IMG/VR virus record: IMGVR_UViG_2617270964_000007
Location: 1-21,272 of that record
Source of the DNA: a virus
Taxonomy: Duplodnaviria; Heunggongvirae; Uroviricota; Caudoviricetes
DNA length: 21,272 bases
Direction: 5' to 3' (one strand)
Part shown: positions 3,665 to 21,180 of the stretch, piece by piece
Layout: every line of letters starts with the position of its first letter
Position numbering within the stretch: the stretch's first letter is position 1
Notes under the pieces: generated by a model
What the model saw: the letters and a program-made list of their open reading frames with translations, nothing else
What the model was told of the DNA's origin: nothing
Database searches by the model: none
Made by a program: the position numbers and the translations under genes

Positions 3665-3946
3665 TTAGCAATTGATATTCACCTTTATCGCGTATACCTT
3701 TACCGGTTTATCACCGAAGTGGGGGTGTGTGATTGTTTTCACTTCATATCCTCCATACGGAACATCAATTCTGCGACTGGAGTCGTCGCGCTTCGGATAT
3801 CCCTTTGTGATAATCAGGCGGTCATACTCCCGGAACATAATTCGCTTATTCCAATAGTCATTACACAGGCGATACTCTTCCGTTTTCTCTCCTCGAATCA
3901 TGGCATCGAAGTATTCACCTTTGACGGCAAGTTGTAGGTTAGCCAC
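3665..3946 (-). CDS. Small PUA/ASCH-like domain protein (tentative), 93 aa, GTG start
   Basis: GTG at 3946 preceded by AGGAGG at optimal spacing. The N-terminus LQLAVKGEYFDAMIRGEKTEEYR resembles the beta-barrel opening of ASCH/PUA-like domains. The fold assignment is a guess from sequence pattern. Confidence 0.45.
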   Translation of the reverse strand: MANLQLAVKGEYFDAMIRGEKTEEYRLCNDYWNKRIMFREYDRLIITKGYPKRDDSSRRIDVPYGGYEVKTITHPHFGDKPVKVYAIKVNINC

Positions 3947-4673
3947 GGTTAACCTCCTGCGGCGGTTCTGGCAGCGGCATCCAGTGGGTTACGTCATCCA
4001 AGATATTTCCTGATAAATATGTGAAAGCTCTATATTTTTTGTAATCAATTGGACTCATTACCCAGTTCCAATATGCTGCCACTATTTGACCTTGACTAAA
4101 TGCCAGTAACATTTTGGTGTCGTCCGGCATTCGCTCACTACAGCTTATCCAACCATCCGGAGTTACCGGAGAGTTGCCATTTACATCGAAGTTTGGCTCT
4201 GCGTCCTGAATCAGGAGGATGTAGCCATTCTTGGCAGTATCAAGTTCTAACGCCTCGGTGACGGTGCCGAAATAGCGATTACCTAAATCAGCATCACAAG
4301 TACTTACATCAATGGAAACTTCCATGCCTTCGATTAATTCTGGCAAGTTGTAAGCTTGGCTTACAGGTTCGGCTTCCAGTTCTGCAATGCGCTTTTTTGC
4401 TGTTTCCAGCTCGCCCAGCAGCGCCAAGACGGTAGCCGGATTGGCTGCAGCGATGAATTCAGCATTGGCCTGCTGTTCCATTTGGAAATCTTCATCGAAA
4501 CCGCTTTCTGGATGCGCTCCTTCAATTCTGCAAATGGGAAGATATCCAACAACTTCACGATGAATTAGTGCATCACCAGCATCAAATCTCTCCTCTCCAT
4601 ATTCGAGCGACCACACACCACACGTTGCTTTCTCTGCCGCCTCACGCAGTGCCTGATAGTCAATCTTGCTCAC
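3939..4673 (-). CDS. Ead/Ea22-like protein with C-terminal DUF551-like domain; probable GTG start at 4673 (track ORF extends to 4694)
   Basis: AAAGGAGG lies 6 nt upstream of the GTG at 4673, giving [16 protein letters not shown]..., as Ead/Ea22-family proteins begin in my recollection. The C-terminal segment [11 protein letters not shown]...[10 protein letters not shown] resembles DUF551. Confidence 0.6.
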
Positions 4674-4837
4674 TGTTTGCCTCCTTTGCGCCACATCGCA
4701 TTCAGATATTTGTTTTGATTCACTGATGGAAAAGAATTTCTCTTAAGCAATTCCTCTCTCGATGGCATTGGCTTTACGCGTTGGCGAATAATCATTTCTG
4801 CCGGAAGAATGCCGGGATTGTATGCAAGTCCTCTCAT
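4670..4837 (-). CDS. Small basic hypothetical protein, 55 aa
   Basis: ATG at 4837 with AGAGGAA upstream. Its stop overlaps the start of the downstream Ea22-like gene (GTGA), suggesting translational coupling. Below the 60-aa ORF-track threshold. Confidence 0.3.
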
Positions 4838-4853
4838 GGTAAATTCCTCTTTG

Positions 4854-5168
4854 TTAATTTATTCGTATGCCAGCTCTTTCTTCATCGAGTTTTTTTAGCT
4901 TGTATCGCATAGCTCTTACTGAATAAATTGAGCGGCAGGTTGCAATTGCTATTTCTTCTGCGGAGAACTTACCGAAAAGTGATACTTCGGCTCTTGTCCA
5001 GCGTCTTCCACGAAGTCGGCTAACAATGTCAGCGCCAATCCTTGTTGCTTTCGCCATAACTGCTTTTTCAGTCCTTTCCAGTTTTTCAGCGATAACTTCA
5101 ACTGGCATTGTCGCCGCTACTTCGCGCAAGAAATCGACTTCCCATTTCTCCCATGGAGTCTTTTTCAT
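4854..5168 (-). CDS. Hypothetical protein with two Myb/SANT-like helix-turn-helix repeats (tentative)
   Basis: Two segments with spaced tryptophans ([17 protein letters not shown]... and [24 protein letters not shown]...) resemble tandem Myb-like repeats. The start is probably the ATG at 5168; the track begins at a TTG at 5174. Confidence 0.45.
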
Positions 5169-5179
5169 AGGCAATACCG

Positions 5180-5662
5180 TTATTTGATAAGAAGTGAAGG
5201 TTTCCCAACTTTGAGTTGAGCGCCGGGGATATTTATTCCTGCTTTTAGTTGGTGTTTGATTGCCAGTTTGTCGGCTTTAATTGTCGTTTCAAACTCAACG
5301 TATTCAGGAGGAAGGGCGCTTGAGTCGATTATTTCTACAATTTCTGACGGTTTGCGGATTGTTACCTGGTGAATACCTGCTCGAATATTTTTCTTGCCAA
5401 CCATTTCAAGCGATGACGCTATATATGATTTGATGCTGTCAATCTTATTTTGAATTACTGCGGCTCGCTCATTTAGTGACTTTGCCTCTTCCTTGAGGCG
5501 TTCAGCATAACCATATTCATTTTTAATAATGGCAAGAAGTTGCTCTATTTTATCGGTAAATTCTCCTTCCATGCCTTCTATTGTGTCAGCAATCATCTCT
5601 GGCTCTAAATCTGAATCCATCAGCTTTGCATATTCATTGGCTATTTCATACAGTTTGCTCAC
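5180..5662 (-). CDS. Siphovirus Gp157-family protein (recombination-module accessory), about 160 aa, probable GTG start
   Basis: Coiled-coil-rich sequence immediately downstream of recT. AGAGGT lies 5 nt upstream of the GTG at 5662. Gp157-family proteins commonly accompany RecT/Sak recombinases. Confidence 0.55.
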   Translation of the reverse strand: MSKLYEIANEYAKLMDSDLEPEMIADTIEGMEGEFTDKIEQLLAIIKNEYGYAERLKEEAKSLNERAAVIQNKIDSIKSYIASSLEMVGKKNIRAGIHQVTIRKPSEIVEIIDSSALPPEYVEFETTIKADKLAIKHQLKAGINIPGAQLKVGKPSLLIK

Positions 5663-6548
5663 TGGCAACCTCTAGTTTCGCTTTGCATTCTATGTAAATG
5701 GCTTGTACGTTCTGCTGCAATTTCATTCCAGATGTCAGGCGATATGCTTCTGCAAAATATCGCTTCAAATCATCCATGTTTTCTGCCTGAGCCATTTCAT
5801 CACAAAGAAGTTGTGCTTTTTCCATAATTTCCTGCTGGTGTTTCCGTTCATCTTCGCGGATATCTTCCTCTGATTTGTGCGGCATAACTGGTTCCTGATG
5901 CATACCTTCATCTTCGTTAAGCAGGTGAATGGCATTATCCAGTCGCTGGGCTTTAGGCCAGTATTTGCTGGCGCGTTTAACTATTGTTTTACGCGCCATC
6001 TCTTCCCAGAATGTTTTCCACGGTCCATTCTTTGCCTTGCTCGTTGCTTCCACTGCTTTAATTTCTGCCAGACTCATTTCTTCAGTCAGGTAGTCACCAT
6101 CTGCTGTTTTTACCGTGCAATAACCACCAACAATAGAGCCTCGCTCTCCAAATGCGTTGTATTTGTGAGTTGGTGCTGAATCAAGGCCGTTTGATTCATA
6201 GGTGTCGTTTGAGTACACCAGTTTGCATTGCCCCCACTTAATTGATCCTGTCGATTGCGCAAGATGAAGTAATCCCATGTAACTGATATCAAGGCACACC
6301 ATGCCGTCGCGAGGAACCAGATAAGCTAGTTTGCTGGCCGGGTTTAAGGTGATGCCGATCGCCGCAACATTGATGATGGCGTTCTGTGCGCTGGTTGGAT
6401 TTGCCAGTGCTGTTTTAGCCAGGTAATCGTTTTTCTGGAAATACTGAATTGCAAACTGGCTTTCCTTAGCCCATGTCACCGTCTGTTCAGTCAATGCTCC
6501 GCAGAATAACTGCTCTTGCTGTTTAACGAATTCAACGATATTGCTCAT
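5646..6548 (-). CDS. recT: RecT-family single-strand annealing recombinase, 300 aa
   Basis: ATG at 6548 with GGAGAAG upstream. The translation has the RecT/Red-beta core as I recognise it (…PRDGMVCLDISYMGLLHLA…FGERGSIVGGYC…). It sits in the recombination position of the leftward early operon. Confidence 0.8.
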   Translation of the reverse strand: MSNIVEFVKQQEQLFCGALTEQTVTWAKESQFAIQYFQKNDYLAKTALANPTSAQNAIINVAAIGITLNPASKLAYLVPRDGMVCLDISYMGLLHLAQSTGSIKWGQCKLVYSNDTYESNGLDSAPTHKYNAFGERGSIVGGYCTVKTADGDYLTEEMSLAEIKAVEATSKAKNGPWKTFWEEMARKTIVKRASKYWPKAQRLDNAIHLLNEDEGMHQEPVMPHKSEEDIREDERKHQQEIMEKAQLLCDEMAQAENMDDLKRYFAEAYRLTSGMKLQQNVQAIYIECKAKLEVASEQTV

Positions 6549-6856
6549 GCAGCTTCTCCATAAATATGTCTGCGTTTGAATATTGCGAAGGCATATTCAG
6601 CCTTAACTCTTTCGGTTATTGCATCCCAGAACCATTCAGCGGCTTTTTCCTGATAGTTACAGTCATCATCTTCCAGCCAGTCGATAGCGTCCTTAGTGTG
6701 TTCATCTGGTTTATATGAGCGAAGCATTTCGCTTATTGGGTCGCAACGTTTGCAGAGGCGATCAACTTCACTGTTGATTCGCTCGTAATCTTCATCAGTA
6801 AAACTTGCGATTATTTGCGATATTTCACGCTTATCATTCAGAGTCAGAATCATCAT
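6545..6856 (-). CDS. Hypothetical acidic protein, 103 aa
   Basis: ATG-ATG start at 6856 with AGGAGA upstream. Translationally coupled to recT (ATGA overlap). No family recognised. Confidence 0.5.
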   Translation of the reverse strand: MMILTLNDKREISQIIASFTDEDYERINSEVDRLCKRCDPISEMLRSYKPDEHTKDAIDWLEDDDCNYQEKAAEWFWDAITERVKAEYAFAIFKRRHIYGEAA

Positions 6857-12993: not shown

Positions 12994-13434
12994 ATGAAAA
13001 AACTAACCTTTGAAATTCGATCTCCAGCACATCAGCAAAACGCTATTCACGCAGTACAGCAAATCCTTCCAGACCCAACCAAACCAATCGTAGTAACCAT
13101 TCAGGAACGCAACCGCAGCTTAGACCAGAATAGAAAGCTTTGGGCTTGCCTTGGTGACGTCTCTCGTCAGGTTGAATGGCATGGTCGCTGGCTGGATGCA
13201 GAAAGCTGGAAGTGTGTGTTTACCGCAGCATTAAAGCAGCAGGACGTTGTTCCTAACCTTGCCGGGAATGGCTTTGTGGTAATAGGCCAGTCAACCAGCA
13301 GGATGCGTGTAGGCGAATTTGCGGAGCTATTAGAGCTTATACAGGCATTCGGTACAGAGCGTGGCGTTAAGTGGTCAGACGAAGCGCGACTGGCTCTCGA
13401 ATGGAAAGCGCGATGGGGAGATCGGGCAGCATGA
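12994..13434 (+). CDS. ninB: NinB (Orf-family recombination mediator), 146 aa
   Basis: ATG at 12994; the track ORF begins 18 nt upstream at a different start. The translation MKKLTFEIRSPAHQQNAIHAVQQILPD… matches lambda NinB as I recall it. Confidence 0.85.
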   Translation: MKKLTFEIRSPAHQQNAIHAVQQILPDPTKPIVVTIQERNRSLDQNRKLWACLGDVSRQVEWHGRWLDAESWKCVFTAALKQQDVVPNLAGNGFVVIGQSTSRMRVGEFAELLELIQAFGTERGVKWSDEARLALEWKARWGDRAA

Positions 13435-13958
13435 CTATCAAATCAAATACGCCAGCACACGACAAGGACTGCTGGCAAACGCCGCTTTGGCTTTTTGATG
13501 CACTGGATATTGAGTTTGGATTCTGGCTGGATTCGGCAGCGAGCGACAAAAATGCTCTGTGCGCTCACTGGCTAACTGAGGCCGACGATGCGCTCAATTC
13601 TGAGTGGGTAAGCCACGGTGCAATCTGGAATAACCCACCGTACAGCAATATCAGGCCGTGGGTGGAAAAAGCCGCTGAGCAGTGCATACAACAGCGACAG
13701 ACGGTAGTGATGCTTGTGCCAGAGGATATGTCTGTCGGATGGTTCAGCAAGGCTCTGGAGAGTGTTGACGAAGTTCGCATTATCACTGATGGACGGATTA
13801 ATTTTATCGAACCATCGACGGGGCTGGAGAAGAAGGGAAACAGCAAAGGCTCCATGCTGCTGATTTGGCGACCGTTCATCAGTCCTCGACGGATGTTTAC
13901 TACCGTATCCAAAGCGGCATTGATGGCGATCGGGCAGGGTGTCAGGAGGGCTGCATGA
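13431..13958 (+). CDS. Phage DNA N6-adenine methyltransferase (Dam family, NPPY motif)
   Basis: ATG at 13431 overlaps the ninB stop. It contains the catalytic motif WNNPPYS and the conserved WQTP motif near the N-terminus, typical of the phage Dam-family MTases. It sits between ninB and ninC, which are adjacent in lambda. Confidence 0.75.
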   Translation: MTIKSNTPAHDKDCWQTPLWLFDALDIEFGFWLDSAASDKNALCAHWLTEADDALNSEWVSHGAIWNNPPYSNIRPWVEKAAEQCIQQRQTVVMLVPEDMSVGWFSKALESVDEVRIITDGRINFIEPSTGLEKKGNSKGSMLLIWRPFISPRRMFTTVSKAALMAIGQGVRRAA

Positions 13959-14800
13959 TAAATGTCGTTAGTTTCTCAGGTGGCAGGACGTCAGCATATT
14001 TGCTCTGGCTAATGGAGCAAAAGCGACAGGCAGGTGAAGACGTGCATTACGTTTTCATGGATACAGGGGCAGAGCACCCTAAAACATATGAGTTCATCCG
14101 AAATATCGTCAGTAACTGGAAAATAGACTTACATTGCCTTCGTGTAATACCTAATCCAGAAATGGGGAAGGCCAGTAGTTATGAAGAGATAGGTGACAAT
14201 GATATTGGTCCAGATCTTATACCGTGGAAAAGGATGTTAAATAAATACGGACATCCATATATCGGCGGTGCGTTCTGTACCGACAGAATGAAGTCTGTTC
14301 CATTCACCAAATATTGTCAGGAAAAGTTTGGGAAAGGAAATTACATCACATGGCTTGGCATTCGCACAGATGAACCAAACAGGCTTAAAAGGGCTAATGG
14401 TTTTCGGTACCTGGCTGATATAAGCGATTTTGACAAACAGGATGTGCTTGATTGGTGGAGTGGGCAGAAGTTTGATCTTGGCATACAGGAGCATCTTGGT
14501 AATTGTGTTTTCTGTATAAAAAAAAGTATGCAAAAGGTTGCGCTGGCAGCCATGGATGAGCCAGAACTTGCAGATGCATTTATCAACATCCTTGATACAG
14601 AAATAAAAACAGGAAAGGAACCGGTTATGTATCGAGGGAATAATACACTTAAATCACTGATTGCCTTGTTTAGTGATATATCAAGAGATGAGTTAGCCTC
14701 AAGAATGACATCAATGCGACAGTATGATTCAGGTTCGTGTTCTGAATCATGTGAAGCATTTTCATGTCAGCTTGGATTTAATTTTGAGGATGCGGCATGA
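13955..14800 (+). CDS. ninC: NinC, PAPS-reductase-like PP-loop protein, 281 aa
   Basis: ATG at 13955 with AGGAGG upstream. PP-loop motif SFSGGRTS near the N-terminus and cysteine clusters CVFC and [10 protein letters not shown] near the C-terminus. The N-terminus [20 protein letters not shown] resembles lambda NinC as I recall. Confidence 0.8.
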
Positions 14801-20676: not shown

Positions 20677-21180
20677 TTATTGATAGTGTTTTATGTTCAG
20701 ATAATGCCCGATGACTTTGTCATGCAGCTCCACCGATTTTGAGAACGACAGCGACTTCCGTCCCAGCCGTGCCAGGTGCTGCCTCAGATTCAGGTTATGC
20801 CGCTCAATTCGCTGCGTATATCGCTTGCTGATTACGTGCAGCTTTCCCTTCAGGCGGGATTCATACAGCGGCCAGCCATCCGTCATCCATATCACCACGT
20901 CAAAGGGTGACAGCAGGCTCATAAGACGCCCCAGCGTCGCCATAGTGCGTTCACCGAAAACGTGCGCCACAACTGTCCTCCGTATCCTGTCATACGCGTA
21001 AAACAGCCAGCGCTGACGTGATTTAGCACCGACGTAGCCCCACTGTTCGTCCATTTCCGCGCAGACGATGACGTCACTGCCCGGCTGTATGCGCGAGGTT
21101 ACCGACTGCGGCCTGAGTTTTTTAAATGGCGGAAAATCGTGTTGAGGCCAACGCCCATAATGCGGGCGGTTGCCCGGCAT
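20677..21180 (-). CDS. insB: IS1 transposase InsB reading frame (expressed as the InsAB' fusion by -1 frameshift)
   Basis: The translation …[53 protein letters not shown]… is the IS1 InsB sequence. Confidence 0.88.

Follow-up and report, generated by a model that had tools for sequence, protein, structure and literature searches.

Background

Since the 1980s, Abc1 of phage P22 has gone by 'anti-RecBCD' protein or recombination accessory, labels that name no mechanism. It aids P22 recombination but is not essential, and its phenotype is genetic only (PMC12315714, PMC9836394). The protein has a helix-turn-helix (HTH), and its expression leads to P4 satellite prophage-dependent lethality (bioRxiv 10.1101/2023.04.06.535777) and makes wild E. 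coli more sensitive to phages (bioRxiv 10.1101/2023.04.06.535777; PMC12373910). The record of a second phage protein, T5 D5, describes it as binding DNA and as being required for both replication and late transcription. Outside phages, two characterised proteins offer points of comparison—GcrA, whose binding depends on N6-adenine methylation (PMC3667746, PMC5887438), and Cbp2, in which two imperfect HTH repeats are tethered by a basic linker so that DNA is bound with high affinity (PMC3597662). Our search of the literature on phage SANT/Myb proteins found nothing relevant.

Here we describe a 104-aa protein encoded by a virus of the Caudoviricetes, using a stretch of 21,272 nucleotides that we refer to in its entirety as the window. 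We consider it probable that this is a small, basic, early-expressed phage DNA-binding protein made of two HTH units of Myb/SANT-GcrA type joined by a basic linker. The analysis brings Abc1, the window protein, and T5 D5 together in one repeat family of predicted Myb/GcrA-like DNA binders.

An internal gene of the leftward early operon

The gene lies on the minus strand at 4854..5168, with its ATG at 5168 and its stop at 4854-4856 according to both the ORF list and the sequence. A preliminary description of this DNA had the coordinates right but gave a length of 105 aa; the 315-nt ORF encodes 104 aa plus a stop. A TTG two codons upstream is a possible alternative start, and orthologues use the ATG. 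Upstream are genes for a RecT-family single-strand annealing protein (5646..6548, minus strand), recognised from the annotations of matching phages and from co-occurrence, and for a Mu Gam-like end-protection protein (5180..5620, minus strand; phrog_253, E 1.4e-47). The Mu Gam-like stop and the ATG of the 104-aa protein are 11 nt apart, there is no Shine-Dalgarno sequence in the gap, and translation of the protein probably occurs in succession to that of the Mu Gam-like gene. On the other side, a DUF2737 gene (4670..4837, minus strand; Pfam PF10930, E 8.8e-32) starts 16 nt past the stop and is followed by an Ead/Ea22-DUF551 gene (3939-4694) and, further downstream, by an integrase-sized ORF (1459-2619) at a position where matching phages have excisionase and integrase. 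The gene is thus internal to a leftward early operon. RecT and the Mu Gam-like gene lie on one side of it and DUF2737/Ea22/xis/int on the other, an arrangement that bears out its earlier assignment to the early-left accessory region. No promoter or terminator patterns were found flanking it on its own strand.

Some further features of the window deserve mention. The mechanical ORF of the Mu Gam-like gene spans 5180-5668 on the minus strand, with a TTG start at 5668 that makes it overlap RecT; annotated phages start this gene at the ATG at 5620, yielding 146 aa. In the nin region, an ORF for a Dam-family DNA adenine methyltransferase (13371-13958, plus strand) is overlapped by 94 nt by a PAPS-reductase-domain ORF (13865-14800, plus strand). 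Close to the window's right-hand end, a transposase-like ORF on the opposite strand (20677-21180, minus strand; phrog_720, E 2.3e-79) may be an insertion sequence.

A conserved and already catalogued gene

The gene is genuine and under strong purifying selection. This judgement is based on a dN/dS of 0.07 (dS 0.79, dN 0.058) relative to the copy of Salmonella phage SEN22, which is 91% identical, on the existence of 2,553 representative relatives, and on a confident AlphaFold2 model. Proteins that are 100% identical are encoded by phages Gally, mEpX1, Louie, and vB_EcoP-683R2, and the wider set of identical or near-identical proteins comprises those of Gally, mEpX1, HK140, Kapi1, Louie, and Dewey. 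Among complete E. coli genomes, 299 of 5,426 (~5%) carry the gene, always on the chromosome, and it is found in 320 viral contigs. A tblastn search of phage genomes returned 16 records only, all at least 91% identical, with P22 beyond the reach of BLAST. RefSeq names the identical mEpX1 and HK140 proteins, as well as the SEN22 copy, 'transcriptional regulator, D5-like', and the Gally record labels its identical protein 'similar to P22 Abc1'. The family is therefore already catalogued, reference phages already have annotations for identical proteins, and the gene is an ordinary member. By itself, as a catalogued HTH gene of lambdoid prophages, it matters little.

Two homologous repeats of unequal charge

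The protein divides into four segments, all on the minus strand. Residues 4-46 (5031..5159) form HTH unit 1, with helices at 8-17, 23-30, and 34-44 in the AlphaFold2 model; residues 47-55 (5004..5030) form a basic inter-unit linker, DIVSRLRGR, that is non-helical in the model (pLDDT 75); residues 56-93 (4890..5003) form HTH unit 2, with helices at 59-66, 70-77, and 81-99 in the AlphaFold2 models; and residues 94-104, together with the stop (4854..4889), form a C-terminal tail that is variable or absent in orthologues (pLDDT 57). Across 21 orthologues, the invariant residues are E10, F13, I26, K29, L30, R32, and G45 in unit 1 and W57, T77, and R79 in unit 2. Unit 1 bears the subfamily signature I-A-E-K-L-E-R-[ST], and unit 2 the motif RW-T-x-x-E...EIA..T-[CG]-R-S-I-x-S-V-R.

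That the protein contains two similar segments, as the preliminary description had proposed, is well supported. BLASTP of one half against the other gave no alignment, and profiles of the two units, each built from 17 orthologues, align over 40 columns (hhalign probability 92%, E 5.6e-7). Because of this alignment, and because a subfamily of ~152-aa relatives carries a third, inserted copy of the unit, the two halves are, on profile evidence, true homologous repeats. The regular spacing of tryptophans that had been reported is correct in one respect: W6 and W57, 51 residues apart, are equivalent, each standing at the first Trp position of its unit. The protein has only three tryptophans in all (W6, W9, and W57), only the first Trp position per unit is conserved among orthologues, and the second and third positions of Myb are not Trp, so that the Myb triad is absent. 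Likewise, the protein is basic overall, as had been noted (pI ~10, net charge +8), but unevenly so, with a net charge of about 0 in unit 1 and +9 in the linker plus the strongly basic unit 2. Unit 1 also has an unusual, conserved acidic turn in which L-E-R stands instead of L-G-R.

Predicted fold

Structure prediction with fold comparison had been put forward as the check on a Myb-like assignment, with a fold unrelated to HTH or Myb domains counting against it. From a 21-sequence alignment of the whole protein, AlphaFold2 predicts two three-helix bundles (mean pLDDT 86), and unit 2 modelled alone from an alignment of 82 family units reaches pLDDT 90; the pTM of 0.48 means that the orientation between the two units is not confidently predicted. 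Foldseek comparison of the whole model and of a single unit with the PDB returned HTH DNA-binding proteins only—Pax paired domains, Cbp2 (2lvs), the Myb repeats of SNAPC4, the bipartite HTH of Mos1 and Tc3, and also RcsB, NarL, and homeodomains—at E-values that do not reach significance (best 0.13 for the whole model and 0.63 for the single unit). All top matches are HTH and a non-HTH fold was not seen, consistent with the proposed assignment. Since a fold search cannot separate Myb from homeodomain, Tc3, or LuxR-type HTH, the predicted fold is a generic tri-helical HTH, compatible with the Myb/homeodomain-like class and not diagnostic of it. Against predicted viral structures (BFVD), 15 fold matches were found at E < 1e-3, mostly phage proteins of ~100 aa, with names among the matches listed that include 'AsnC family protein', 'GcrA cell cycle regulator', 'D5 protein', and 'Myb-like domain-containing protein'.

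Transitive profile links to Myb/SANT and GcrA

Profile searches place the 104-aa protein in PHROG 323, 'transcriptional regulator, D5-like', which matches residues 2-99 (E 2.8e-20, 74 bits); its best PHROG is phrog_11492, whose function is unannotated (E 4.6e-23). It passes none of the curated Pfam/NCBIfam models. The only Pfam match is a sub-threshold one to HTH_12, there is no Pfam Myb match even at E<=10 and none to Pfam GcrA, Sigma70_r2, or Sigma70_r4, and NCBIfam and PADLOC returned nothing meaningful. A profile search of 1.8 billion representative proteins recovered the 2,553 relatives at E<=1e-3, many of which have the unit 4-10 times in tandem, recurring every 44-54 aa. Several of these multi-unit relatives pass the Pfam models Myb_DNA-binding, Myb_DNA-bind_6, GcrA, or Sigma70_r4_2, with Pfam Myb scores of 140 bits for P0056 and 50 bits for P0061.

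The relatives include large proteins: P0054, P0056, P0057, and others have 300-900 aa and up to 10 tandem copies of the HTH unit, which in P0056 is fused to a ResIII/Helicase_C helicase. P0113, used as a query against viral contigs, gave no match.

To relate single units to known proteins, we used a unit profile made from 82 family units, both units of the window protein included, with the consensus W-T-x-x-E-x-x-x-L...E-I-A-x-x-L-G-R-x-x-x-S-V-x-x-K-x-x-x-L-G-L. Against PDB sequences this profile matched Cbp2 (E 4.4e-10), c-Myb R1R2R3 (E 9.5e-8), B-Myb (E 1.8e-6), the GcrA DNA-binding domain (5yiu; E 6.8e-6), and RcsB (E 5e-5). Other queries reached less far: phmmer with the protein itself against PDB sequences gave noise only (an antibody light chain and a glycosyl hydrolase), and the two-unit family profile gave a borderline match to NarL (E 0.016) and an E-value of 0.25 for Cbp2. 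Taken singly, 17 of the 82 units match Pfam Myb, 16 match Sigma70_r4_2, and 10 match GcrA (PF07750).

The description of the protein as tandem Myb-like repeats is thus supported at the superfamily level, and by transitive homology only, since the unit profile matches c-Myb and B-Myb and relatives pass Pfam Myb whereas the protein itself falls below the Pfam Myb threshold and lacks the Trp triad. The accompanying remark that such repeats are uncommon in phages did not survive, given PHROG 323, the 2,553 relatives, the many look-alikes of ~100 aa in BFVD, and the identical proteins annotated in known phages. A separate candidate, a sigma-70 family sigma factor, was rejected: there is no Sigma70_r2 or Sigma70_r4 Pfam match, and 104 aa is too short.

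Probable remote homology to P22 Abc1 and T5 D5

Abc1 itself matches PHROG 323 (E 1.3e-23), and the stretches of this repeat profile that the two proteins match are register-shifted by one unit (145-269 for the window protein and 93-190 for Abc1). BLASTP of the window protein against P22 Abc1 gave no alignment, and a profile of its family aligned with the Abc1-family profile over 76 collinear columns spanning both units (hhalign 93.9%, E 1.5e-7), with unit 2 opposite unit 2 of Abc1. The unit profile scores 33 bits on Abc1 unit 2 and 42.6 bits on T5 D5. These comparisons support the view that the protein is a remote, collinear homologue and the positional counterpart of P22 Abc1.

Homologues of Abc1 with 94 aa (P22 locus 26970-27254; P0196-P0212) are named 'sigma-70 family RNA polymerase sigma factor' by NCBI, a name that apparently derives from the Sigma70_r4_2 match alone and that belongs to proteins far too short for it.

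The uncharged unit 1 and its acidic L-E-R turn, part of the conserved E-K-L-E-R, would also suit contact with a protein, of the sort that SANT domains make, and one might imagine that one or both units act as a SANT-like or sigma region-4 decoy directed at RNA polymerase, at a host regulator, or at a defence protein. Relatives and Abc1 do match Sigma70_r4_2, and expression of Abc1 in wild E. coli gives counter-defence-like phenotypes (PMC12373910). We nevertheless regard such mimicry as very unlikely: the whole protein is very basic, the closest characterised proteins (Cbp2, Myb, the GcrA DNA-binding domain, RcsB, and T5 D5) are all DNA binders, AP-MS of Abc1 yielded no clear partner (PMC12373910), and the window protein has neither a sigma region 2 nor a Pfam match to Sigma70_r4.

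Exchangeable recombination modules upstream

All 80 of 80 viral contigs that encode the identical or a near-identical protein also encode Mu Gam-like and RecT proteins. In SEN22, by contrast with the window, the 91%-identical gene follows an exonuclease VIII-like (RecE-like) gene and phrog_11517 (locus positions 1111-2815), and its ATG overlaps the upstream stop. Because SEN22 thus has a different upstream module from the RecT and Mu Gam-like genes of the window, sequence comparison places a mosaic joint at the 5' end of the gene. A second joint can be placed at its 3' end, between it and DUF2737, because phages HK620, HK633, and HK629 share ~95-98% identical DNA with the window at 4403-4849 only, up to the stop of the gene, beyond which abc2 replaces the block of the 104-aa protein, Mu Gam-like, and RecT. 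The abc2 that HK620-type phages have at that place was not found in the window. Three-unit relatives follow RecT+YqaJ, RecT+MuGam, Rad52+phrog_38486, or ERF+phrog_38486; counting RecE-like+phrog_11517, family members directly follow at least five kinds of module.

As a side observation, a phrog_3486 gene lies just upstream of the RecT-type recombination module in the window (6545-6856, minus strand) and also upstream of the RecE-like-type module in SEN22 (locus positions 803-1114).

An obligate Mu Gam-like partner was considered and rejected. No family member lies downstream of the diverged Mu Gam-like genes of phages KO-TP1, PdC23, Aeromonas 4_L372X, Vibrio 1.247.B, and YX3973, and SEN22 and the three-unit relatives use other modules.

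The same neighbourhood invites the reading that the protein is a dedicated recombination accessory—a functional Abc1 analogue that acts at DNA ends, on recombination proteins, or on host RecBCD, and not a transcription regulator. Family members are always immediately promoter-distal to recombination genes, with stop and start often overlapping or nearly abutting; the pairing with Mu Gam-like and RecT genes is without exception in the 80 contigs; and Abc1, a probable remote homologue, aids P22 recombination (PMC12315714, PMC9836394). Tight packing is normal in phage operons, however, the diverged Mu Gam-like phages do without a family member downstream, and the window has no abc2. Moreover, the free exchange of recombination modules argues against a specific protein partner and fits a general accessory role. 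On balance, we think a dedicated function of this kind unlikely.

DNA-modification genes beside three-unit relatives

In the subfamily with three units, 37 of 40 loci (L086-L154; homologue match ~4001-4456) have a gene for a DNA-modification enzyme directly downstream, and these enzymes belong to unrelated families: Dam (27 loci), MT-A70 (5), N6_N4 methylase (3), DpdA-like (1), and DndB (1). The 40 loci come from related phages and are not independent samples. Family members adjoin interchangeable recombination modules and, in this sister subfamily, interchangeable DNA-modification genes. The window differs in this respect, the gene that follows being DUF2737 and not a modification enzyme.

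Such an arrangement could suggest a GcrA-like reader of methylated or otherwise modified DNA that couples modification state to transcription. In its favour are the match of the unit profile to the GcrA DNA-binding domain and of 10 of the 82 units to Pfam GcrA, the modification enzyme that comes next in nearly all of the three-unit loci, and the Dam methyltransferase encoded by the window phage itself at 13371-13958. Yet that Dam gene belongs to another operon, at a distance of 8 kb, the window protein has no Pfam GcrA match of its own and no GcrA C-terminal sigma-70-binding domain, and the adjacency in the three-unit loci, which are not independent, may merely reflect the conserved slot order of lambdoid early-left operons. 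For the window protein, we consider this role highly improbable, and slightly more so than a decoy function.

A broader generalisation would join these observations. Under it, Abc1-like tandem Myb/GcrA-type HTH proteins would be one widespread phage class, lodged between the recombination module and, often, a DNA-modification gene, and would link what they sense in DNA (its methylation, another modification, or its ends) to early transcription, to recombination, or to counter-defence. We hold this to be speculative and quite unlikely to be right in full; if true, E. coli would have its commonest member of the class in the window protein, and P22 Abc1 would gain a molecular function.

Proposed mode of action

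We return to the interpretation we prefer, that of an early DNA-binding protein, for which a role as a regulator or as a recombination accessory, with early expression, is most likely. The gene would be transcribed from the early-left promoter as an internal gene of the operon, and its translation would follow on from that of the Mu Gam-like gene. Like Cbp2, Pax paired domains, and c-Myb R2R3, the protein might then bind double-stranded DNA as a bipartite reader. Each unit would place its third helix in the major groove, and most of the affinity would come from unit 2 together with the basic linker. Binding could alter how target DNA is expressed or handled, be it phage DNA, host DNA, or that of co-resident mobile elements. 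If the protein also helps recombination, as genetic work has reported for Abc1, that effect would come second to DNA binding.

Comparison with known systems

In overall architecture, the protein resembles Cbp2 of Hyperthermus butylicus (2lvs), which likewise has ~105 aa with two HTH repeats and a basic linker, is the natural PDB sequence that the unit profile matches best, and ranks second among the fold matches of the whole model, though with an E-value (0.15) that is not significant. Cbp2 is an archaeal, chromosomal binder of CRISPR DNA repeats, whereas the window protein has no CRISPR association, and we read its likeness to the linked HTH of Cbp1/Cbp2 as an architectural analogy. With the Myb/SANT proteins c-Myb and B-Myb (PF00249, PF13921) it shares tandem tri-helical units of ~50 aa and the pattern W-T-x-x-E...L...I-A-x-x-L-x-G-R-[ST]; Myb has a Trp triad, of which the window protein keeps the first Trp only, and it scores below the Pfam threshold. 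The DNA-binding domain of GcrA (PF07750; 5yiu) has a pattern resembling that of the family, W-T-x-E...L...I-A...A-V-x-x-K-x-x-R-L-G, but GcrA has one DNA-binding unit and a C-terminal sigma-70-interacting domain, whereas the window protein has two units and ends 11 residues past the second, leaving no room for such a domain.

Among phage proteins, T5 D5, the namesake of PHROG 323, contains a unit of the same type and is also the product of an early gene; at 255 aa, it is more than twice as long, has three or more degenerate units, and belongs to a lytic phage in a replication-gene context. P22 Abc1 ('anti-RecBCD protein 1', 94 aa) is closer in several respects, being small and basic, with two HTH-like units, and encoded in the early-left operon directly after recombinase genes (erf-abc1 in P22; RecT, Mu Gam-like, and then the 104-aa protein in the window). 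It differs in that neither the conserved Trp nor the EKLER signature is present in its unit 1, in that its neighbours are erf before and abc2 after in place of Mu Gam-like/RecT and DUF2737, and in that its family is narrow and confined to Salmonella, unlike that of the window protein. As an abundant and tractable E. coli member, the window protein could clarify the role of the whole Abc1-like family, and it offers a handle on the loose end that Abc1 has represented.
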